From Candidatus Eiseniibacteriota bacterium (GTDB lineage: Bacteria; Eisenbacteria; RBG-16-71-46; SZUA-252), in NCBI GenBank assembly GCA_031370645.1, contig JANMQV010000058.1:1-10168 (forward strand): a stretch of DNA of 10,168 bases, given 5' to 3'. Positions 1-10,168 of this stretch are shown here, piece by piece; position 1 is the first letter of the stretch; every line of letters begins with the position of its first letter. The notes beneath the pieces are model-generated. The model was given only the letters and a program-made list of their open reading frames with translations, was not told the DNA's origin and made no database searches. Position numbers and translations under genes: made by a program.

Positions 1-368
1 CGCCGCACGACCTCGCGGAGCGCGACCTCGCGCTTCGCTCCCTCTTCCCCGATTTCCTTGAAACCCGCCGAAATCACGACGAGCGCCTTTACACCTTTCT
101 TGCCGCAGGCTTCCACTGCTTCCAAGACACCGACTGAAGGAACGACGATGATTGCCAGATCCACTTCGCCCGGCACGGCGGCGATGTTTGAATAGGCGGG
201 AAGCGATTGGACGTGCGTGGCGTTGGGATTGATCGCGTAGACCGGCCCCTGGAAGGGCTGCTCGGTCAGGTTATGCAGGATGGCGCCGCCGATTGCGTCG
301 CGACGGCGCGAGGCGCCGATGACCGCGATGCTGCGGGGCCGAAAGAGTGGATCGAGTGATTCCGGCAT
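1..368 (-). CDS. ADP-forming acetate/acyl-CoA ligase (ACD family), N-terminal CoA-binding domain; runs off the left edge of the window
   Basis: Not in the ORF track. Manual translation from ATG at 368: MPESLDPLFRPRSIAVIGASRRRDAIGGAILHNL...GPVYAINPNA...PAYSNIAAVPGEVDLAIIVVP...VEACGKKGVKALVVISAGFKEIGEEG. The motifs P.SIAVIGAS, VDLAII.VP and ISAGF.E.G are typical of this family. GAGGAG RBS lies just upstream and there is no stop before the edge. Confidence 0.93.
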   Translation of the reverse strand, partial: MPESLDPLFRPRSIAVIGASRRRDAIGGAILHNLTEQPFQGPVYAINPNATHVQSLPAYSNIAAVPGEVDLAIIVVPSVGVLEAVEACGKKGVKALVVISAGFKEIGEEGAKREVALREVVR

Positions 369-410
369 GGGGCTCTCCTCTCGGCGCGCCTCCGTGGCGC
401 GACCGAAACG

Positions 411-419
411 AGTGTATCA
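411..419 (-). promoter_or_regulatory. Putative extended -10 promoter (TGnTACACT) for the acyl-CoA ligase gene
   Basis: Minus strand reads TGATACACT about 43 nt upstream of the ATG at 368; no good -35 hexamer is present. Confidence 0.5.
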
Positions 420-464
420 CTTCAGCGGAATTTCGCGGGGTGGTCCGGAGGTAGCGCGAGAGCG

Positions 465-761
465 CTAGGGTAGCCCCGCCTTACGGCGCGCCGCTTCCAC
501 CTGCCGCGCGAGGGCAACGTCCTTATCCGTGATGCCACCCTGGTCGTGGGTTACAAGCGAGAGCGTGATGTTGCTGTATCGGATGTCGATGTCGGGGTGG
601 TGGTTCGCCACCTCCGCCAGTTGCGCCACCGCGTTCACGAAGACGATCGCTTCGGGGAACGAGGGGTGCGCGAACTTCTTCTGGATCATCCCGCCGATCA
701 CGCTCCAGCCCGGGAGCGTGGCAAGTTCTTTCGCGAGATCGGAATCGCCGAGGCGCGCCAT
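465..761 (-). CDS. phhB: Pterin-4-alpha-carbinolamine dehydratase (4a-hydroxytetrahydrobiopterin dehydratase, PCD/PhhB family)
   Basis: Motif E-x3-H-H-P-x5-Y-x9-H-x8-D (EVANHHPDIDIRYSNITLSLVTHDQGGITDKD). Start placed at ATG 761 (MARLGDSDL), 4 nt after the stop of the upstream gene; the track start at 779 overlaps that gene. Confidence 0.93.
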   Translation of the reverse strand: MARLGDSDLAKELATLPGWSVIGGMIQKKFAHPSFPEAIVFVNAVAQLAEVANHHPDIDIRYSNITLSLVTHDQGGITDKDVALARQVEAARRKAGLP

Positions 762-765
762 GCGA

Positions 766-1053
766 CTACCAGCGACCAAGAAGGTCTGGGTCGGGCATCA
801 TCTCGGGCGACCAGGCGTCGGGCATGATCTCGACCTCGGAGTCCTTCCCCGTCACACGCTTCATGACCGCCTTCACCTCCGCGACGATCTGCGGCGCGTA
901 GGGGCAAAACGGCGTCGTGAGGAGCATCCGAACCATCGGCGGCTCCGACACGAGGTCTACCTCGCGGACGAGTCCGAGTTCGATGATGCTGAGATGGATT
1001 TCCGGATCCACTACTTCTTCGAGCGCCGTGCGGACTTCTTCTTCGGTTGCCAT
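766..1053 (-). CDS. sufT: Metal-sulfur cluster assembly factor, SufT/PaaD/DUF59 (MIP18) family
   Basis: 95 aa with V.DPE...SI.ELGLV and LTTPFCP motifs; AAGGAG RBS; located in a suf operon. Confidence 0.88.
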   Translation of the reverse strand: MATEEEVRTALEEVVDPEIHLSIIELGLVREVDLVSEPPMVRMLLTTPFCPYAPQIVAEVKAVMKRVTGKDSEVEIMPDAWSPEMMPDPDLLGRW

Positions 1054-1067
1054 GAGTTCTCCTTCTT

Positions 1068-1394
1068 CTAGTCCGGGAGACCGATCAGAAGATCGTCCCC
1101 CTCGACGCGCACTGGATACGACTCCACCGGGGTGATGGCCGGCATGCAGGTGGCCGCCCCGCTCTTGATGTCGAATCGCGCCCCGTGGCGGGGGCAGATC
1201 ACTTCCTGGCCATCCAACTCGCCTTCGGCGAGCGGGCCGCCGTCATGCGTGCAGATGTCCTCGATGGCGTAGTACGCGCCGTCGAGCCGATACACCGCGA
1301 TGTGGCGGTCTTCAATTTCGAACACTTCGGGGCGCCCTTCCGGAACCTCGGTGGAGCGCCCAATCTTCACGAACCGCGCGGTGCCGGCGCTCAT
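1068..1394 (-). CDS. Rieske [2Fe-2S] ferredoxin (dioxygenase ferredoxin-subunit type), SUF-associated
   Basis: Rieske ligand boxes CTH (DICTHDGGPL) and CPRH (ICPRHGARFD); ATGA overlap with the upstream gene. Confidence 0.95.
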   Translation of the reverse strand: MSAGTARFVKIGRSTEVPEGRPEVFEIEDRHIAVYRLDGAYYAIEDICTHDGGPLAEGELDGQEVICPRHGARFDIKSGAATCMPAITPVESYPVRVEGDDLLIGLPD

Positions 1395-1789
1395 GCCTCA
1401 TCCTCCTCTTTCCACCCCTGAATACCGTACACCCCCACCTTCAGCGTCTTGAGCGCGAGTAGCGCGCATTTGAGCCGGACGGGGCCGAGTTCGATTCCCA
1501 ATAACTCGAGGACGTCGTCGCGATTGAGCGCCTTCACTTCCTCGAGGGACTTTCCAATAATCTCATCCGAAAGCATCGAGGCGGCAGCACGGCTGATCGA
1601 ACAGCCGACACCGCTGAACTTCACGTCCTCGACCTTTCCGTCCTTGATCTTCAGATCCATCCGGATCCGGTCGCCGCAGAGCGGATTCGAATCCTCCGCG
1701 CTGACGTCGGGATTTTCGATCGTCCCCCAGTTTCGGGGATTCTGGTAGTGGTCGATGATGTTCTGACGGTTGAAATCGTCGAGGCTCAT
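1391..1789 (-). CDS. sufU: U-type Fe-S scaffold / sulfur-transfer protein (SufU/IscU/NifU_N family)
   Basis: DHY.NPRN.G, NP.CGD (C38, D40), GC.IS (C63), R.KCA (C108); directly follows sufS with an ATGA overlap. Confidence 0.9.
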   Translation of the reverse strand: MSLDDFNRQNIIDHYQNPRNWGTIENPDVSAEDSNPLCGDRIRMDLKIKDGKVEDVKFSGVGCSISRAAASMLSDEIIGKSLEEVKALNRDDVLELLGIELGPVRLKCALLALKTLKVGVYGIQGWKEEDEA

Positions 1790-3039
1790 CGGTTGAAGAC
1801 CGCCTTCACTTTCTCGATGCCTTCCGCCAGCCGCTCGACCTCCGTCGCGTCGTTGTAGACCGTGAACGAAGCGCGCGCGGTCGCCGGAACGCCGAGCCGA
1901 GCGTGAAGCGGCATCGCGCAGTGGTGTCCCGCGCGAACGGCGATTCCCTCCCGGTCGAGCTCTCCCGCCACGTCATGGGCATGAATGTCCGCCACCGTGA
2001 AGCTCAAGACCGCGCCGCGATCTTCCGCGACGGGCGGGCCGTAGACCGTGACGCCGGGGATCCTCTCGAGCGTCTCGATGGCCTGGACGGCCAGTGCGTA
2101 GCCGTGGGCGTGGACCGCGTCCATACCGAGTGCGGAGAGATAGTCGATGGCGGCGCCGAGACCGACGGCATCGGCGAAATTCATCGTCCCCGCCTCGAAC
2201 TTAGAGGGCGGATCGGCCCAGGTCGATTTCTGGAGCATGACTTCGCGGATCATTTCCCCGCCGCCGAAGAAGGGCGGCATCGACTCCAGATGCTCTCGCT
2301 TCGCCACGAGCGCGCCGATGCCGGTCGGGCCGAGCATCTTGTGCCCCGAGAAAGCGAGGAAGTCGGCGCCGGTCGCCTGGAAGTCCACGGGGAGATGCGG
2401 CACTGCTTGGGCGGCATCGATGAACACGATCGCCCCGACTGCGTGCGCGCGCCGCGTTAGTTCAACGACCGGATTGATCGTGCCGAGCGCGTTCGAAACC
2501 CAGGTGAACGAAACAATCTTCACCGGAGCCTTGAGGAGCGTGTCGAGATTCGTGAGATCGAGCCTGCCGTGCGAATCGATCGGGATGTGGCGCAACTCGG
2601 CGCCCTTCTCCTCGGCCAGCATCTGCCACGGCACGAGATTCGAGTGATGCTCCATCTCGGTCGTGAGAATCACATCGCCCCGGCCGACGTTCTTCCGGCC
2701 CCAGGCGTTCGACACGAGATTGACCGACTCGGTCGTTCCGCGCGTGAAAACCACGTCGCGGGCCGAGCGGGCATTGACGAAGCGCGCCACCTTTTCGCGC
2801 GCCCCTTCGTACGCCGCCGTCGCTTCTTCGCCCAACAGGTAAACACCCCGGTGGACGTTGGCGTTGTGGAGCCGATAGAAGTCGTCGAGCGCCTTCAACA
2901 CCGAGGCCGGCTTCTGCGTCGTCGCCGTGTTGTCGAGATAGGCGAGAGGCTTCCCATGGATCTTCCGTTCGAGGATCGGGAAGTCGCGGCGAATCGCCGC
3001 CACGTCGAGCCGCCGCGCGGGCGCGGCCGTCGGATTCAC
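1786..3039 (-). CDS. sufS: Cysteine desulfurase, group II (SufS)
   Basis: YLDN.AT.QKP, ANVHRG, EHHSN.VPW, PLP-lysine motif SGHKM.GP.G, group II catalytic loop RAGHHCA; GTG start abuts the sufD stop. Confidence 0.97.
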   Translation of the reverse strand: MNPTAAPARRLDVAAIRRDFPILERKIHGKPLAYLDNTATTQKPASVLKALDDFYRLHNANVHRGVYLLGEEATAAYEGAREKVARFVNARSARDVVFTRGTTESVNLVSNAWGRKNVGRGDVILTTEMEHHSNLVPWQMLAEEKGAELRHIPIDSHGRLDLTNLDTLLKAPVKIVSFTWVSNALGTINPVVELTRRAHAVGAIVFIDAAQAVPHLPVDFQATGADFLAFSGHKMLGPTGIGALVAKREHLESMPPFFGGGEMIREVMLQKSTWADPPSKFEAGTMNFADAVGLGAAIDYLSALGMDAVHAHGYALAVQAIETLERIPGVTVYGPPVAEDRGAVLSFTVADIHAHDVAGELDREGIAVRAGHHCAMPLHARLGVPATARASFTVYNDATEVERLAEGIEKVKAVFNR

Positions 3040-4416
3040 TTAACCGTCCGCCTTTCGCTCCACCGCCGCCGTGACGAGCGCGCGCAGCGATTCCGCGGGA
3101 ATGCGGTCGAGGACCGGCGTGAAGAAGCCGCCGATCACGAGGAGTTCGGCTTCGTGGCGCGAGAGACCGCGGGACATGAGGTAGAAGAGTTGTTCGTCGT
3201 CCACCTGGCCGACCGTCGCCCCGTGCGTGCAACGGACGTCGTTCGCCTCGATTTCGAGACTCGGAATCGAATCAGCCCTCGCTTTGTTGGAAAGAATGAG
3301 ATTCCGGTTCGCCTGGTAGGCGTCCGAGCGCTGGGCGTCCCGATGAATCTTGATCAGGCCCTGATAGATCGTGCGGGCACGGCCACGAAGCGCTCCCTTG
3401 AAAAGGAGGTCGCTGACGGAGTGACCGACCTTGTGGTTCTGGTAGGTGTGGAAGTCGAAGTGCTGTGTCTCGCTCCCGAAGTAGCAGCCGGAGAGCTTCG
3501 CTTCGGCGCCTTCGCCCTCCAGGTACATTTCGAAGTCGGCCTTCCGGAGCTTTCCGCCGAGTTCGGTCACGGTCCAATGGAAGCGGGCGTCGCGCCCCAC
3601 GCGGACGCGTTCGGTGCCGAAGTGGTAGACGTTTCCGCCCCAACGCTGGAAGGTGGCGAAGTGAAGCGTCGCCGCCTGGCCCACCGTGAGTTCGGTCACG
3701 CCGGAGCAAACACCGTTCCCCGGCTCACCGGCCGAGACGTACTCCTCGATCACCGTGGCCGCAGCCCCTTCCTCGAGCGCCACCACGATGTGCGGGAATT
3801 GCGCGAGGTGCGGCGTCTGGCGGGTGATGACGATGCGAATCGGCCGATCGATCTTCACGCCCTTCGGGACGTGAAGGAACGCGCCGCCCGTCCGAAGCGC
3901 GGCGTTCAGCCCGGTGAAACGATTCTCGTCGGGACGCACCGTCGCGCCGAGATAGCGTTCAACGAGCGCCGGCTGAAGGCGCGCCGCCTCGGCGATCGGA
4001 GCGAACGTCACGCCCTTCGCGGCGAACTCGGCCGAGCGCTCGACATACACGATTTCGGAATCGATGTGCACGAGAAGCGCCGAGCGCTCCTCCGCGGGAC
4101 CGATCGCCTCATGGAGCGACTCGGGAAGCGCCGCCGCCGACTTCACCATCGGATGCGCCGCCTGGTACGGAATCAGTTCTTCCCACTTGAAAGTGGAGAT
4201 GTCGGTCCGGCGCCATAGTTCTTCCAGGCGGCCCGGGAACGCCGTCTTCTGGCAGTAGGTCCACGCCGCGGCTCGCCGCTTTGCCAGGAAGTCGCTGTCG
4301 CCGCTTCGCGTCGCGAGCGCGGCGATGTCTCCCTGCTGGATCGACCCAAGCGTCGGCGCCACGCCCATCGCCGAAGCGACGGCGGGAGCCGGGGTCGTTA
4401 GTTCAGTCGGATTCAC
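3040..4416 (-). CDS. sufD: Fe-S cluster assembly protein SufD
   Basis: E.WRRTD, QH.DF.T.Q.H, S..LFKG.L, DAYQ.NRNLILS, P.LEI.ANDVRCTHGATVG, LFYLMSRG. Start placed at GTG 4416 (GAGGAG 6 nt upstream); the alternative is TTG 4458, overlapping the sufB stop. Confidence 0.93.
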   Translation of the reverse strand: MNPTELTTPAPAVASAMGVAPTLGSIQQGDIAALATRSGDSDFLAKRRAAAWTYCQKTAFPGRLEELWRRTDISTFKWEELIPYQAAHPMVKSAAALPESLHEAIGPAEERSALLVHIDSEIVYVERSAEFAAKGVTFAPIAEAARLQPALVERYLGATVRPDENRFTGLNAALRTGGAFLHVPKGVKIDRPIRIVITRQTPHLAQFPHIVVALEEGAAATVIEEYVSAGEPGNGVCSGVTELTVGQAATLHFATFQRWGGNVYHFGTERVRVGRDARFHWTVTELGGKLRKADFEMYLEGEGAEAKLSGCYFGSETQHFDFHTYQNHKVGHSVSDLLFKGALRGRARTIYQGLIKIHRDAQRSDAYQANRNLILSNKARADSIPSLEIEANDVRCTHGATVGQVDDEQLFYLMSRGLSRHEAELLVIGGFFTPVLDRIPAESLRALVTAAVERKADG

Positions 4417-4454
4417 TCGTGTCTCCTCGTTCACGCTGCTGGAAGTTGGGCCGG

Positions 4455-5876
4455 TCAACCGACCGAGCCTTCCATTTGCAGCTGGATCAGGCGATTCATC
4501 TCGACGGCGTACTCCATCGGAAGTTCCTTCGTGATCGGCTCGATGAATCCGCTCACGATCATCGCGGCCGCTTCGTCCTGCGTGATGCCGCGGCTCATGA
4601 GATAGAAAATCTGCTCGTCGCCGATCTTCGAGACCGTGGCCTCGTGACCGATGGAGACCATGTCCTCCTCGATCTCCATGTACGGATAGGTGTCGGAGCG
4701 CGAGTCCTCATCAAGGATGAGCGCGTCGCACTTGACGGTCGACTTGCAGCCGTGCGAGCCCTTCGTCACCTTCACGAGCCCGCGATAGCCCGCGCGCCCG
4801 CCATCCTTGCTGATCGACTTCGAGATGACGTTGGACGTCGTATCGGGAGCGGCGTGGACCACCTTGCCTCCGGCGTCCTGATGCTGCCCCTTGCCGGCGA
4901 ACGCGATCGAAAGGATTTCGGCGTGGGCGCCTTTGCCCACCATGTAGACGGACGGGTACTTCATCGTCAGTTTGGATCCGAGGTTAGCATCCACCCATTC
5001 CATGGTGGCGTCCTCGTGCGCCATAGCGCGCTTCGTGACGAGGTTATAGACGTTGTTCGACCAGTTCTGGATCGTCGTGTAGCGGCAGCGGCCGCCCTTC
5101 TTCACGATGATCTCGACCACGGCCGAGTGGAGCGAGTCGGTGGCGTAGATCGGCGCGGTGCAACCCTCGACGTAGTGCACGTAGGCGCCTTCGTCGACGA
5201 TGATGAGCGTCCGCTCGAACTGCCCCATGTTCTGGGCGTTGATGCGGAAGTAGGCCTGAAGGGGAAGATCGACCTTCACGCCCTTCGGCACGTAGATGAA
5301 TGAGCCACCCGACCAAACCGCGCTATTGAGCGCCGCGAACTTGTTGTCCGACGGCGGAATTACCGTGCCGAAGTATTCGCGGAATAGTTCGGGGTGCTGC
5401 TCGAGCGCCGACCCGGTGTCGAGGAAGATGACTCCCTGCGCCGAGAGCGACTCCTTGATCTTGTGATAGACGGTCTCCGAGTCGTACTGGGCGCCGACGC
5501 CCGAGAGGAATTTCTGCTCGGCCTCGGGAATGCCCAGCTTATCGAACGTCCGCTTGATGTCGGCGGGGATGTCTTCCCACGACTTACCCTGCTCGTCGAC
5601 CGGTTTCAGATAGTAGTAGATGTCCTGAAAATCGATATCGCTCAAGCGCCCGCCCCACGTCGGCATCGGCTTCCGCTCGAAGTGCTCGTACGACTTGAGG
5701 CGGAACTCGCGCATCCACGCCGGCTCCTTCTTCATATCCGAGATCATCGTCACGACGTCCTTGTCGAGACCCTTCCTCGACTTGAAGATCGGGGCGATGT
5801 CGTCGTGGAAGCCGAACTTCTCCTTGTAGCCCTCGCGGATATCGAGGACCGGCTGCTGCGGCTGCTGGTCGCTCAT
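4455..5876 (-). CDS. sufB: Fe-S cluster assembly protein SufB
   Basis: 473 aa with [59 protein letters not shown] and C-terminal EGSVG; AAGGAG RBS; no intein-sized insertion. Confidence 0.98.
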
Positions 5877-5901
5877 GATCTAGCTCCTTGCCCGAGGGCA
5901 G

Positions 5902-6666
5902 TTAGGCCGCGGTCGCTTCGCGGATCTTGTCGTAGCCCTGCGCTTCGAGCTCGTGCGCGAGCTCCGAACCGCCGGACTTCACGATGCGTCCGTCCACGAG
6001 AACGTGGACGAAGTGAGGCTTGATGTAATTGAGAATGCGCTGGTAGTGCGTGATGAGAAGGATGCCCAAGTCCGGGCCGGCGAGCGCGTTCACGCCCTCC
6101 GACACGATGCGGAGCGCGTCGATGTCGAGGCCGGAGTCGGTCTCGTCGAGGACCGCGACCTCGGGGCGAAGCACCGCCATCTGGAGAATCTCGGCGCGCT
6201 TCTTCTCGCCGCCAGAGAAGCCATCGTTGATGTAACGGCCCGCGAACGACTCGTCCATCTTGAGAAGCGCCATCTTCTCCTTCACGAGCGAACGGAATTC
6301 CTTCGGCGGCATCGGCTTCTCTTCGCCCGCCGCCTTCCGCTTCGCCTGGAGGGCCATGCGGAGGAAGTTCGCGACGCTCACGCCCGGAATCGCGATCGGA
6401 TACTGAAACGCGAGGAAAAGTCCCTTCCGGCCACGCTCGTCCGCTTCCCACTCCGAGATGTCCTCGCCGTGGAAGAAGACCTTGCCCGAGGTGATCTCGT
6501 ACTTCGGATTTCCCATGAGCGCGTTCGCGAGGGTGCTCTTGCCGGAGCCGTTCGGGCCCATGATGGCGTGGATCTCTCCCTTGTTCACGGAGAGCGAGAG
6601 TCCCTTGAGAATCGCCTTTCCCTCCACGGCGACGTGGAGGTCTTGAATCTGGAGTGTCGGGGTCAT
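5902..6666 (-). CDS. sufC: Fe-S cluster assembly ATPase SufC
   Basis: Walker [17 protein letters not shown], signature GFSGGEKKR, Walker [29 protein letters not shown]. Confidence 0.98.
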
Positions 6667-6727
6667 TCGGTGTTTCTCCTTTTATCGGGCGCGGTGTTCG
6701 CGCCTGGTTCATGGCCGGAATCGGCCG

Positions 6728-7105
6728 TTATACGCTGAAACTCTCCCCGCAACCGCACGCCTTCTTGGCGCGAGGGTTGAGGAACTGAACGCCCGATCCC
6801 AGGAGCCCGCGCTGGTAGTCGACCGTCGTTCCCTCGAGAATCGCGAGCGAACGGGGGTCGACGACGACGGTCAAGTCGTCGTACTCCAGCACCAGGTCCC
6901 CCGGACGCGCGGACGTGGTGAAGACCATCACGTAGTGATATCCCGAGCAGCCGCCCGCCTTCACTCCGAGGCGGAGAATCTGCCCTTCCTTCCCTTCGCG
7001 AGTGCGTGCTTGCTTCACGTACGCGACCGCGCCGGGCGTCAACACGACCGTTCCCGCCGGGGCGTCGGGCCGCGCTTCGGGATTCGGTGAAATCGATTCG
7101 GTCAT
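6728..7105 (-). CDS. A-type Fe-S carrier protein (HesB/IscA/SufA family)
   Basis: LR.GV..GGCSG..Y, VD..S...L.G..VDY, NP.A...CGCGESF; ATGA overlap with the MerR gene. Confidence 0.95.
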   Translation of the reverse strand: MTESISPNPEARPDAPAGTVVLTPGAVAYVKQARTREGKEGQILRLGVKAGGCSGYHYVMVFTTSARPGDLVLEYDDLTVVVDPRSLAILEGTTVDYQRGLLGSGVQFLNPRAKKACGCGESFSV

Positions 7106-7653
7106 CGGCTCTTCGTTCCGAGGGGGATCGTGATCCCGCCTCCGTTAGCGCCGCCCTGAAGGCGCGCCGATACGTGAAATCCCGCGACGAGCGCGGGCTC
7201 TTCCTTGACGCCGTGATCCACCGGGCACTGCGGGCAATCGTCCGCCGTCGTGCGCACCGGCTGGCACTGATCGCAGGTGTGGAGGTAGTGAAGCGCCTCC
7301 ACGAGTTCCTGCTCCAACGTCTGGTAGCGCTTCAATTGCTCCCGCGTCTCGGTGAGGCGCGACTGAAACGCCTCGCGAAGCGTGGCCATGGCGGTCGGCC
7401 CGTAGTGGGTCTCCTGCCACTCGCGCCGAAGGCCCTGGATTTGATGAAGCGTGAAACCGCATTCCTGCAGCAGTTCGATCCAGCGGATCTGACGGATCGC
7501 GGTCTCGTCGTAGAGTCGAAAGCCGCCCTGAGACCGCGTCGCGGGCGTCAGGAGTCCCAGCTCCTCATATAGATGAAGAGCCCGGATCGACTTCCCGGCC
7601 TGCTTGGCTAGGTCGCCTACTTTGAGGAGTTTGCTTTGATCAATCGTTTCCAT
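7102..7653 (-). CDS. MerR-family transcriptional regulator with C-terminal CX2C-X9-CX2C motif
   Basis: N-terminal MerR HTH (KVGDLAKQAGKSIRALHLYEELGLLTP..RSQGGFRLY, GFTL.QI), a long coiled-coil helix, then C127, C130, C140, C143. Confidence 0.93.
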   Translation of the reverse strand: METIDQSKLLKVGDLAKQAGKSIRALHLYEELGLLTPATRSQGGFRLYDETAIRQIRWIELLQECGFTLHQIQGLRREWQETHYGPTAMATLREAFQSRLTETREQLKRYQTLEQELVEALHYLHTCDQCQPVRTTADDCPQCPVDHGVKEEPALVAGFHVSARLQGGANGGGITIPLGTKSR

Positions 7654-7677
7654 GGGACCTTCTAGGGTTAGATGCGG

Positions 7678-7707
7678 ATCGTACCCTTACGTGTACGTTA
7701 GAGTCTA
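7678..7707 (-). promoter_or_regulatory. Putative sigma70 promoter of the merR-suf operon (-35 TAGACT, 18-bp spacer, -10 TACGAT)
   Basis: Minus strand reads TAGACT-CTAACGTACACGTAAGGG-TACGAT; the -10 lies 24 nt upstream of the ATG at 7653. Confidence 0.7.
7683..7704. promoter_or_regulatory. MerR-type operator, imperfect 10-2-10 inverted repeat
   Basis: ACCCTTACGT-GT-ACGTTAGAGT; 8 of 10 arm positions are complementary. It overlaps the -35 and fills the spacer, the usual position of MerR-family operators. Confidence 0.75.
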
Positions 7708-7773
7708 TCCCATTTTTCGGGTGGTCGGGGGCTCGGGGCGAGGGGAAGTTGGGTTTTCTGGCCAGGGGGTGAG

Positions 7774-7789
7774 TGTGACCTTTATCACA
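7774..7789. promoter_or_regulatory. CRP-type binding box (TGTGA-N6-TCACA)
   Basis: TGTGA-CCTTTA-TCACA is an exact match to the CRP core consensus and lies in the divergent intergenic region. Confidence 0.65.
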
Positions 7790-7869
7790 TTGGAAATGAG
7801 TGGTTTAGGGGGATATCCCCATCCGGGGAGGCAGACAATGGCGGAACCCAAACGGCCCCTCGCGGGCTT

Positions 7870-7878
7870 TGGTAGTAT
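7870..7878 (+). promoter_or_regulatory. Possible extended -10 promoter (TGnTAGTAT) for the cupredoxin gene
   Basis: TGGTAGTAT about 50 nt upstream of the GTG at 7929; no convincing -35. Confidence 0.4.
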
Positions 7879-7928
7879 GTCCGGGAGCCGGATCTTGGAT
7901 GGAGTCAGGACAGCCTAGGAGGACCACC

Positions 7929-8321
7929 GTGTTTCGACACCCTGTAGTTCGACTGACCGCGATCGCCCTAATTGCTGCGGGCGTGGCGTTGGCGGCCCAT
8001 GGATGCGGCAGCGATAAGAAGAACCCGACCGGGCCGGGAGGCGGCGGAACGCCCGCTGATGTGACGATCAACATTGTTGGGAATTCCGGCTCGAGTTCCT
8101 TCTCGCCGAGCCCCACCACGGTTACCGTTGGGCAGACGGTCTCGTGGAAGAACAATGACACGACGACCCACACGTCGACCGCGGACGGGAGCGCGTGGAA
8201 CACCAACAACATCGCTGCCGGCGCCACGAGCGCGCCAATCACCATGAGTGCGGCAGGAACATTCCCCTACCACTGCAACATCCATTCGAGCATGACCGGC
8301 ACCTTGACGGTGAACCCTTGA
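7929..8321 (+). CDS. Cupredoxin (plastocyanin/amicyanin-like blue copper protein), probable lipoprotein
   Basis: GTG start after AGGAGG; signal peptide ending in a lipobox-like AAHG-C; Gly/Pro/Thr linker; F.P....V.VG.TV.W.N.D...HT; type-1 Cu ligand loop YHCNIHSSM (C-x2-H-x2-M). Confidence 0.9.
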   Translation: MFRHPVVRLTAIALIAAGVALAAHGCGSDKKNPTGPGGGGTPADVTINIVGNSGSSSFSPSPTTVTVGQTVSWKNNDTTTHTSTADGSAWNTNNIAAGATSAPITMSAAGTFPYHCNIHSSMTGTLTVNP

Positions 8322-8329
8322 CCGAATTG

Positions 8330-8794
8330 ATGCGGTTTCTCCACGTCGTGGGTGCGGTGGTTCTGATCGGAGATTTGCTTTACGGCGGTTTCTGGCTCAC
8401 GCGGGCAGTGAAGCGCGGCGACGCGGGACTACGCGGTTATGTCCTCGCCACGATGGCGTGGACCAGCAAATCGTACGCGCTCCCGGCGATTCTGGTGAAT
8501 TTGATCGCCGGGCTGGCTTTGATTCACTTCAAGCACACGCCCATGAAGACCGCGATCTGGCTCTGGATCGCGGTGCCGCTCTACGTCGTGATGATGGGCC
8601 TCTGGCACGGCGTGTTGATTCCGAAGCGGAAGAAGATGGCGGCAGCGTTTGGAGAGCCGGAAAAGGGTGGAAAGTCGGCGGGAGCGGCGGGCGATTTCGA
8701 TTCCATGGCCCGCGGGTGGCTCAGCGTGAACGGCGTGATTTTGTTTTTGCTCTTCGCGATCCTCGCTTTGATGATTTGGAGGCCGTCGCTTTAG
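8330..8794 (+). CDS. Four-TM integral membrane protein, DUF2269-like
   Basis: Begins MRFLHVVGAVVLIG, has four hydrophobic segments and ends LMIWRP, as I recall for DUF2269-type proteins. Start is ATG 8330, or TTG 8318 overlapping the cupredoxin stop. Confidence 0.75.
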   Translation: MRFLHVVGAVVLIGDLLYGGFWLTRAVKRGDAGLRGYVLATMAWTSKSYALPAILVNLIAGLALIHFKHTPMKTAIWLWIAVPLYVVMMGLWHGVLIPKRKKMAAAFGEPEKGGKSAGAAGDFDSMARGWLSVNGVILFLLFAILALMIWRPSL

Positions 8795-10168
8795 ATTTCG
8801 GCTTTGCGCGGCGTTTGGGCTTCACGAGGCGCTTCGGCTTCGACTTCGGCCTCGATTTCGATTTCGGTTTAGGTTTAGGTTTCGACTTGGATTTCGATTT
8901 CGGTTTCGACTTGGGCTTCGATTTGGACTTCGGCGCCGTGGCTTCCCGCCTCGGCGCCGTTCCCTTTTCCAGCGTCGTCCAGCGCACAAAGGGCAAGAGC
9001 CGCGACACGCCGCCGTGTGTCCCGAACGGCGTGGGGCGCTGAAGCGATCCGATAGCGGTGATCCGCGGAATTCCCAACTCCGCGAGCCTGCTTTCCAATC
9101 GTTCCCGCCGCGATCCGCGCTCTTCGATCCCGATCGCTTCGATGAACTGCTCGGCGCCGGCGACAGCGCCGATGAATTCCTCGACATTCTTCACGGCGTG
9201 AACGCGAACGACGCGATGGCGCGGCCCCGGTTCAAAACGAGCGCTCCCTTCCGCGATCACCGTCCACTCCGTTCCCCGTTCCGATTCGAGGATCCGCGTC
9301 ACGCGCCCCGTCGCGGCCTCGAGCGCAGCCTGCGCCCGCGAGAGTTGCACCGATGCGGCCTCCGCGAGCACCGGTTCCCGCCGCGGTAGCCGGCTCGCGG
9401 CCGCATCGAGCGCGGCGCCGAGTGCTTCGGCGAAGGCGACCGGCGTCACCATCCCGCCACGTTCTACGTAGAACGCGTGCGGCGAGAGGCAGCCCTGCTG
9501 ATCGTAGAGCGCCACGTCGTGCGCCGCTCGGGCGGCGAGTGTTGGGAGCGATCCGCGCCGCATCGCGCCCGCGCCGATGTAGCCGACGCTCACCTTCGGT
9601 CCTTGAAGCACAACCGCGGCGCCGGGCCGAGTCGCATGAGAGATGCTTGTGACGGCCAATTCCCCGCCGAAAGCGAGAACCGCGGGCGCGCGATCAAGCG
9701 CCACGCGATCGAGCTCCGTTTGCCCGCCTTTCCACCAGACGACCGCCATGCAGGCGCCGAGGTCGGGATCGATCTCCGCGATCGCCGATGCGAGAAGCGG
9801 CGCGAAGAGCGGCTCCTGCGCCGCCGTCTTCGCGACAAGCGCCGATTTGAGGAGTAGGGCCGAGAAGAGCGGGAGGACCGGCACGGTCGGAACGTTGCCG
9901 GCGTAGATCTGAAGCATCCACTCCGGCCCGTGCGCGCGGCGGCGCGTGCCGCCGGGGCCGGGCATAGGGCGGTCGAGCGCTCTGGTCGAGCCCAATTCTG
10001 CGGAGAGCCAGCGCGAGAGCCCTCCGTGCGCGAGCGGCTGAAAGGCATCGTCGAGCGCCTGCGAGACCATCGGGGCGGAGAACGTGCCGGTGCGACCGAG
10101 CGCGTCGATCGCCTCCCGCCGCTGCTTGGAGCGCGGATCGAGATAACGCTCCACCACGCGATCGAGCG
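8721..10168 (-). CDS. Acyl-CoA reductase, LuxC family (ALDH superfamily), 5' end outside the window, with a basic low-complexity C-terminal tail
   Basis: AGNVP, LL.KS...K, V.WW.GG, AFGG, GPK.S, catalytic YDQQGCLSP, G..RI...G.LQ.P...HGG. The frame stays open to the right edge (…LDRVVERY). Confidence 0.85.
   Translation of the reverse strand, partial: LDRVVERYLDPRSKQRREAIDALGRTGTFSAPMVSQALDDAFQPLAHGGLSRWLSAELGSTRALDRPMPGPGGTRRRAHGPEWMLQIYAGNVPTVPVLPLFSALLLKSALVAKTAAQEPLFAPLLASAIAEIDPDLGACMAVVWWKGGQTELDRVALDRAPAVLAFGGELAVTSISHATRPGAAVVLQGPKVSVGYIGAGAMRRGSLPTLAARAAHDVALYDQQGCLSPHAFYVERGGMVTPVAFAEALGAALDAAASRLPRREPVLAEAASVQLSRAQAALEAATGRVTRILESERGTEWTVIAEGSARFEPGPRHRVVRVHAVKNVEEFIGAVAGAEQFIEAIGIEERGSRRERLESRLAELGIPRITAIGSLQRPTPFGTHGGVSRLLPFVRWTTLEKGTAPRREATAPKSKSKPKSKPKSKSKSKPKPKPKSKSRPKSKPKRLVKPKRRAKPKSKATASKSSKRGSRRAKTKSRRSR
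8835..8930 (-). repeat. 16 degenerate hexamer repeats encoding (K/R)(S/P) dipeptides
   Basis: AAGTCC AAATCG AAGCCC AAGTCG AAACCG AAATCG AAATCC AAGTCG AAACCT AAACCT AAACCG AAATCG AAATCG AGGCCG AAGTCG AAGCCG on the minus strand. Confidence 0.9.

Follow-up and report, generated by a model that had tools for sequence, protein, structure and literature searches.

A four-cysteine MerR-family protein at the head of SUF operons as a candidate regulator of iron–sulfur cluster assembly in Candidatus Eiseniibacteriota

The assembly of iron–sulfur (Fe–S) clusters is controlled in bacteria by the Rrf2 proteins IscR, RisR and RirA, by the SufR types, which are not MerR-type proteins, by Fur and Irr, and by OxyR. 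Within the Rrf2 family, RisR and IscR sense clusters and ligate them through three cysteines plus another ligand, as described in the available sections of the RisR paper (PMC9973013). In the MerR family, the portion of a metal-sensing review available to us names SoxR, NmlR and AdhR as the only redox-sensing groups and describes a four-cysteine loop in SoxR that holds a [2Fe-2S] cluster (PMC11672702, Chem Rev 2024). Here we describe a MerR-family protein with a different four-cysteine loop, encoded as the first gene of a SUF operon (7102-7653, minus strand) in a 10,168-nucleotide stretch of DNA from Candidatus Eiseniibacteriota (assembly GCA_031370645.1, contig JANMQV010000058.1, positions 1 to 10,168; hereafter the window). 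An IscR/SufR-like role on a MerR scaffold, which the initial annotation had suggested, was borne out by comparative genomics. Because its cysteines are conserved, its gene is linked to Fe–S assembly genes, its operator is gene-specific and it replaces Rrf2 regulators, a role as a dedicated regulator of Fe–S biogenesis is well supported by these sequence comparisons. Whether it does so by sensing an Fe–S cluster is a narrower claim, and we lean only slightly towards the full reading, in which a dedicated and autoregulated transcription factor of the Fe–S assembly operon senses an Fe–S cluster via its four cysteines.

A full-text literature search, which leaves out most subscription journals and all supplements, found no report of suf or isc control by a MerR-type protein, and the apparent precedents did not hold. 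RisR of Myxococcus is an Rrf2 protein, and MerR is never mentioned in the accessible part of its paper (PMC9973013). The "MerR" matches in papers on suf genes of Streptococcus mutans stem from cited references, in which Merritt is the name of an author, and a review on Deinococcus mentions MerR only for SoxR.

The open reading frame of the regulator begins with an ATG and encodes a protein of 183 amino acids, and its stop codon shares an ATGA with the start of the gene for an A-type Fe–S carrier (sufA/hesB-like; 6728-7105, minus strand), which was assigned by PF01521 and TIGR00049 (110 bits, cut-off 58.8). Reading frames, Pfam matches and coordinates agree with the initial annotation, which had placed a MerR protein at the head of the operon and had noted that its gene and that of an A-type carrier overlap at an ATGA. 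The residues it had singled out (H122, H125, C127, C130, C140, C143 and H147) and the span of the cysteine codons (7225-7275) likewise match the translation exactly. The protein belongs to the MerR family by its N-terminal winged helix-turn-helix, with three Pfam domains each over the cut-off: MerR_1 (PF13411; E 1.5e-11, 44.6 bits, cut-off 21.6), MerR (PF00376; E 3.6e-10, 39.9 bits, cut-off 28.2) and, by a narrow margin, MerR-DNA-bind (PF09278; E 1.9e-5, 25.6 bits, cut-off 25.4), which covers residues 54-119. The DNA-binding domain itself (residues 11-77; 7423-7623, minus strand) is matched by PF13411, was recovered over this same stretch by a genome search and aligns to solved MerR DNA-binding domains. 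A search of solved structures with the regulator profile matched 41 MerR-family chains; these alignments are confined to the N-terminal 120-130 residues, and the cysteine module found no match among the solved structures. A match to PF02082 was absent at E up to 0.01, which places the regulator outside the Rrf2 family. Downstream of the carrier gene the operon continues on the same strand with sufC (5902-6666), sufB (4455-5876), sufD (3040-4458), sufS (1786-3039) and sufU (1391-1789), all assigned by Pfam. In a genome-wide domain search of the source genome, a 3.0-Mb draft with an estimated completeness of 95%, matches to SufBD and NifU_N were confined to this operon. SUF is thus the sole Fe–S assembly system that this genome was found to have, and its expression must be maintained under all conditions.

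The cysteines of the putative sensory region are strongly conserved. All four are kept in each of the best 120 of 304 homologues, 116 of which have the spacing CxxC-x9-CxxC while four have Cx3C as the first pair, and in an alignment of 23 sequences reaching down to 32% identity C127, C130, C140, C143 and P153 are invariant. The motif is also retained at larger distances. A profile search over 1.84 billion cluster representatives gave 239 clusters at E up to 1e-30, and the four-cysteine pattern was present in 124 of the 150 top representatives of 50%-identity clusters. The 26 representatives outside the pattern, judged by eye from their final 70 residues, comprise eight that end before the motif, six with frameshift-like divergence, nine with other four-cysteine spacings and three unclear cases. 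The four-cysteine motif exceeds chance, and the conservation that had been named as a check on the initial annotation was found in both the close homologues and the cluster representatives. The broader motif of that annotation, which takes in the histidines, fared less well: the four cysteines are conserved, but H122 and H125 are not. Histidine occurs at position 125 in only 12 of 128 alignment rows and is not among the six commonest residues at position 122, and the column of H147 has histidine in 43 of 128 rows of this alignment, which had been preselected for the cysteine motif. As H122 and H125 vary and the residue at 147 is mostly not histidine, the conserved ligand set consists of the four cysteines. 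The additional cysteine C65 is not conserved, and there is no cysteine counterpart on the partner protomer. A few homologues carry metagenome-assembled genome labels given by their submitters, which are unverified, from Limnocylindrales, Hyphomicrobiales, Acidobacteriota, Krumholzibacteriia and Udaeobacter.

Linkage to Fe–S assembly genes is similarly strong. Among 25 related genomes, sufA directly follows the regulator gene in 23, and the two remaining contigs break off at this point. An independent scan, made on contigs from metagenomes, yielded 80 regulator loci with 47-86% identity; where at least 300 nucleotides were available downstream, the next gene belongs to SUF in 65 of 66 loci (sufA in 64, sufC in one), and the remaining locus, with 337 nucleotides of downstream room, gave no match. 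The adjacency to hesB/suf genes on which the initial annotation had staked its proposal was thus recovered in two separate sets of loci. Four distant members (32-40% identity) occur in other families of the phylum, and three of them (33-40% identity) precede genes for a class-V cysteine desulfurase and IscU/IscA. In one of these genomes, G048, the distant member heads a full cluster of the ISC (iron–sulfur cluster) type, iscS-iscU-iscA-hscB-hscA-iscX, and so occupies the usual place of IscR. On the other side of the regulator gene, two genes of the window that are divergent from it (7869-8794, plus strand) encode a cupredoxin-like protein and a membrane protein of the DUF2269 type.

A 20-bp palindrome is common to the regions upstream of the gene in the genome loci, whereas its flanking sequences have fully diverged. 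In the window this predicted operator lies at 7684-7703 (minus strand), about 24 nucleotides upstream of the regulator's start codon, and has an 8+4+8 layout with arms that are complementary at six of eight positions; because the arms match at only these six, the palindrome was missed by an inverted-repeat finder with 6-nucleotide seeds. Immediately after it, almost all of the compared upstream regions have a TAnGAT box. The predicted -10-like hexamer of the window stands at this place (7678-7683), a predicted -35-like hexamer (7702-7707) overlaps the first two operator bases, and a GAAGG ribosome-binding site precedes the gene (7658-7662, all minus strand). A matrix built from 28 sites, the weakest of which scores 17.4, gave 34.2 at 7684-7703 and 14.6 for the next best site in the 3.0-Mb genome. 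Moreover, the best match scores at least 17 and lies just upstream of the regulator in 78 of the 80 metagenome loci, which had not been used for training; sequence upstream of the gene is lacking in the two exceptions. SUF-linked loci and the ISC-linked G048 locus both carry the operator, which is absent from nine SUF loci headed by an Rrf2 gene (best matrix score 8.7). Since the operator travels with the regulator gene and occurs once in the source genome, it appears to mark a single-operon, autoregulated unit. As to functional class, both linkage to suf/isc genes and an operator of its own in the promoter of the operon were found for this protein.

Comparison across the phylum suggests that the regulator takes the place of an Rrf2 protein. 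A profile search detected it in 123 of 201 genomes, predominantly in two families: in family f1 it is present in 35 of 40 genomes and an Rrf2 match (PF02082) in 13 of 40, eight of these at E near 1e-4, and in family f9 the counts are 76 of 87 for the regulator and 28 of 87 for Rrf2. In all 16 families besides these two, every genome has an Rrf2 match. Some of them lack the four-cysteine regulator altogether, such as f13 (0/6 for the regulator, 6/6 for Rrf2), f15 (0/12 and 12/12), f18 (0/14 and 14/14) and f11 (0/5 and 5/5), and others carry both, namely f17 (3/3 for each) and f12 (2/3 for the regulator, 3/3 for Rrf2). The remaining small families show this pattern too, and the tallies of the two proteins by family are complementary. 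One unpublished genome, G066, is included in both tallies, but no particular point depends on it. In genomes of the same phylum without the four-cysteine regulator, an Rrf2 gene lies directly before sufB or sufC in seven of nine. The source genome itself, at its estimated completeness, has no match to Rrf2 (PF02082) or Fur (PF01475); DtxR-type regulators lay outside this search. Both regulator types stand side by side in genome G081, in which an Rrf2 gene and a gene for a PNPOx-like flavoprotein (locus L173, 1779-2939, plus strand) are found upstream of a four-cysteine merR-sufA-sufC-sufB array. We considered this Rrf2 protein as a second suf regulator and rejected it, as its gene is 1 kb upstream, is paired with the PNPOx-like gene and is separated from the suf operon.

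An AlphaFold2 model of the regulator, computed from 128 aligned sequences (mean predicted local distance difference test score, pLDDT, 90.7), places the cysteines in the typical sensory region of the family. The DNA-binding domain is followed by a long dimerisation (coiled-coil) helix of residues 85-127, which ends on C127 (7273-7401; pLDDT 94-98) and is also indicated by PF09278. Conservation and the model together then delimit a loop of residues 127-153 (7195-7275) with C127, C130, C140, C143 and the near-invariant P153; in the model its residues 128-153 are irregular and non-helical, with pLDDT 86-94 in the absence of a modelled cofactor. A C-terminal helix of residues 154-167 (7153-7194, all minus strand), with the conserved residues L155, V156 and G158, completes the chain according to the model, column counts and structural alignments. 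Fold searches with the model returned only MerR-family proteins, and alignments to CueR, CadR, MerR and SoxR run from residue 8-10 through 157-161 (Z 9.2-12.3). As these alignments reach residues 157-161, the last helix corresponds to the C-terminal helix of those proteins, and the cysteine loop to an enlarged form of the loop in which they bind metal. A search of the ESM Atlas with the whole regulator gave generic MerR clusters. With residues 118-170 alone it gave unnamed clusters and SoxR fragments with scores of 0.82-0.86, which are below the level that counts and were set aside.

SoxR is one of the closest known systems. It shares with the regulator the MerR fold, four cysteines of one protomer in the loop after the dimerisation helix and, as predicted for the regulator, an operator inside the promoter, and it aligns structurally over model residues 8-157 (Z 11.0, root-mean-square deviation 5.1, 118 residues). 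The match to the SoxR family model TIGR01950, however, stays at 45.7 bits where the cut-off is 116.9. The cysteine spacing also differs, being CX2CXCX5C in SoxR according to the review (PMC11672702) but CX2C-X8-9-CX2C within a loop of about 26 residues in the regulator, and SoxR controls soxS or small stress regulons rather than its own Fe–S assembly operon. For IscR and RisR the likeness is that the corresponding place in sister lineages is taken by Rrf2 proteins and that conserved cysteines are found on both sides, but their fold is unrelated and their operators are different. SufR, of the cyanobacterial and of the actinobacterial Rv1460 type, is likewise a cysteine-bearing repressor heading suf operons (PMC6034842), yet it has another DNA-binding fold, whereas Pfam finds only MerR domains in the regulator. 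The regulator probably works like IscR, RisR or SufR without kinship to them.

The fold, the invariance of the cysteines, the synteny with SUF and ISC operons, the operator linked to the gene and the Rrf2 protein in the same slot of sister lineages are observed here; what we infer from them is that the protein binds DNA, which boxes form the promoter, what the cofactor is and which way regulation runs. The regulator would bind as a MerR-type dimer to the 20-bp palindrome between the -35-like and -10-like boxes, and this binding would control transcription of merR-sufA-sufCBDSU. The four invariant cysteines would read the signal from the enlarged loop, the counterpart of the site that accommodates the metal or cluster in CueR, ZntR, MerR and SoxR. 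Among the possible ligands, an Fe–S cluster delivered by the SUF machinery that the regulator itself would control is the most likely, although we rate it at about an even chance; it is favoured because characterised cysteine-containing regulators at the heads of these operons sense clusters, because Rrf2 proteins fill the same slot in sister lineages and because the SoxR loop holds a cluster. Feedback would then depend on cluster occupancy, as it does for IscR, RisR and SufR. As SUF has the housekeeping role in this genome, the holo form would keep the promoter shut, and release or activation of the promoter would fall to the form that is oxidised or lacks its cluster. More tentatively, and with a probability that we place somewhat short of even, a cysteine-loop cluster sensor of the MerR family could have displaced Rrf2/IscR at the heads of SUF and ISC operons within one phylum, with a logic reversed relative to classical MerR proteins. 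If this holds, the protein would add to Rrf2 and the two SufR types a fourth independent fold for Fe–S homeostasis, and it would represent only a second Fe–S-binding class of MerR proteins next to SoxR. Cluster-sensing control of SUF and ISC would have arisen again on another scaffold, and the phylum would offer a natural displacement of one regulator by another, Rrf2 versus MerR. Moreover, a second, chemically different Fe–S or metal site would become available within the well-understood framework of DNA distortion by MerR proteins. Although the host phylum is uncultured, the hypothesis is directly testable, as the protein is small, can be expressed in E. coli and has a predicted operator defined to the base.

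Several observations weigh against cluster sensing at a MerR-type promoter by a regulator that has replaced Rrf2. By hand count, about 25 of 120 regulator-bearing genomes also have a strong Rrf2 match, and related genomes are not independent samples, so that we make no statistical claim on the tallies of the two proteins. One of the distant members, in genome G037 (locus L039), is not adjacent to Fe–S assembly genes, and in family f1 the divergent cupredoxin gene is conserved upstream of the regulator as well. Further points concern the promoter. Classical MerR promoters have a palindromic operator in an over-long spacer of 19-20 nucleotides; here, the palindrome is between the boxes but the predicted spacer measures 18. 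Each box matches the sigma-70 consensus at four of six positions, and this consensus may not be that of the phylum. A simple promoter scan of the window gave no site at a threshold of 9 of 12, and the -35-like box, the position of which is conserved in f1 loci, is poor in loci of family f9.

The alternative that survives best, though we consider it unlikely, keeps the regulatory role in SUF and ISC operons and replaces the cluster by Zn(II) or free thiols at the four cysteines, which would act as a thiol–disulfide redox switch. Oxidation of the CxxC pairs by oxidants would release the Zn and change the shape of the dimer, so that the operon is induced in an OxyR-like or RsrA-like manner. Twin CxxC pairs are indeed the archetype of a structural or redox-active Zn site, and Zn sites that serve as redox switches are known, which counts against a cluster in the loop. 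The confident modelling of that loop without a cofactor also suits the redox switch, and the evidence from synteny and operator fits it equally well. Thiol-based sensors exist in the family, and NmlR and AdhR share with the regulator the MerR scaffold and, on this reading, cysteine-based redox sensing; HiNmlR is even the top structural match (Z 12.4). These proteins, however, have one or two cysteines and no enlarged loop, and they act on aldehyde or nitrosothiol detoxification, as far as the review is available to us (PMC11672702). Moreover, a sole Fe–S assembly system needs homeostatic control and not just induction by stress, and the slot in sister lineages is held by Rrf2 proteins, the characterised regulators of which sense clusters according to the available sections of the RisR paper (PMC9973013). 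These points only lower the probability of the redox switch, and Fe–S cluster sensing stays the preferred reading for this loop.

Still less probable is a metal-ion sensor in the style of CueR or ZntR, with Cu(I), Zn(II), Co(II) or Fe(II) as the signal, that would induce SUF upon damage to clusters by toxic metals or upon a change in iron supply; the cupredoxin neighbour would then be a link to copper. CueR, ZntR, CadR, PbrR and MerR have the same domain order and the same place of the ligand loop as the regulator, and the profile alignment pairs C127 with C113 of PbrR691, the first loop cysteine of that protein and presumably a ligand of Pb(II). The best NCBIfam match of the regulator is to CueR, followed by ZntR, and pipelines of the Joint Genome Institute label many homologues as copper efflux regulators. 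All NCBIfam matches are nevertheless far below their thresholds: 61 bits for CueR (TIGR02044; cut-off 147.4), 53.9 and 52.6 for ZntR (cut-offs 143-168), 46.7 for CadR-PbrR (cut-off 151) and 44.8 for the mercury-responsive MerR (cut-off 151). The ligand set and the loop length of these sensors are different too; the Cu(I) site of CueR is made up of two cysteines, whereas four are invariant here. A copper link could draw on the conservation of the divergent cupredoxin-DUF2269 pair in f1-type loci, where it is accompanied upstream by a LuxC-like gene, but this arrangement is not conserved in f9 and ISC-linked loci, which lack the cupredoxin neighbour and in which the link to Fe–S assembly is kept. 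In addition, a Pfam scan of the proteins of the window revealed no efflux pump or metal-resistance gene in the vicinity of the regulator, and the operator occurs once in the genome, at the promoter that reads into merR-suf. Least probable of all is a purely structural Cys4 site holding Zn in a constitutive repressor or activator, or in a protein that answers to some other ligand or partner, for instance through its C-terminal helix: many regulators have structural Cys4 Zn sites, and the conserved P153, L155, V156 and G158 of the helix region could form a second interface, but the cysteines sit exactly where MerR-family sensors bind their effectors, and a regulator without a signal would be of little use at the head of an essential operon.

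Some further features of the window and of related loci were recorded. The distant member of G037 (L039, 1880-2347, plus strand) is a four-cysteine protein of 32% identity with half of the operator retained upstream, and the convergent gene downstream of it encodes an electron transfer flavoprotein-ubiquinone oxidoreductase with a 4Fe-4S domain. In genome G057, about 350 codons are inserted in frame into the sufB gene (L034, 3552-6026, plus strand); the insertion includes a LAGLIDADG homing-endonuclease domain and is most likely an intein. The tail of the SUF operon in the window consists, by Pfam, of genes for a Rieske ferredoxin (1068-1394), a DUF59/SufT-like protein (766-1053) and a pterin-4a-carbinolamine dehydratase (465-779, all minus strand). 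Relatives likewise have Rieske and DUF59 genes after sufU, and the start of the dehydratase gene overlaps the DUF59 gene at the end of the operon. At the opposite end of the window, an open reading frame for a LuxC-type acyl-CoA reductase (8721-10157, minus strand) closes with a tail whose coding sequence overlaps the DUF2269 gene of the opposite strand at that gene's 3′ end. The tail comprises about 70 residues, nearly all Lys, Ser, Pro and Arg, in repeats of the KSKPK type, which is unusual for the family.

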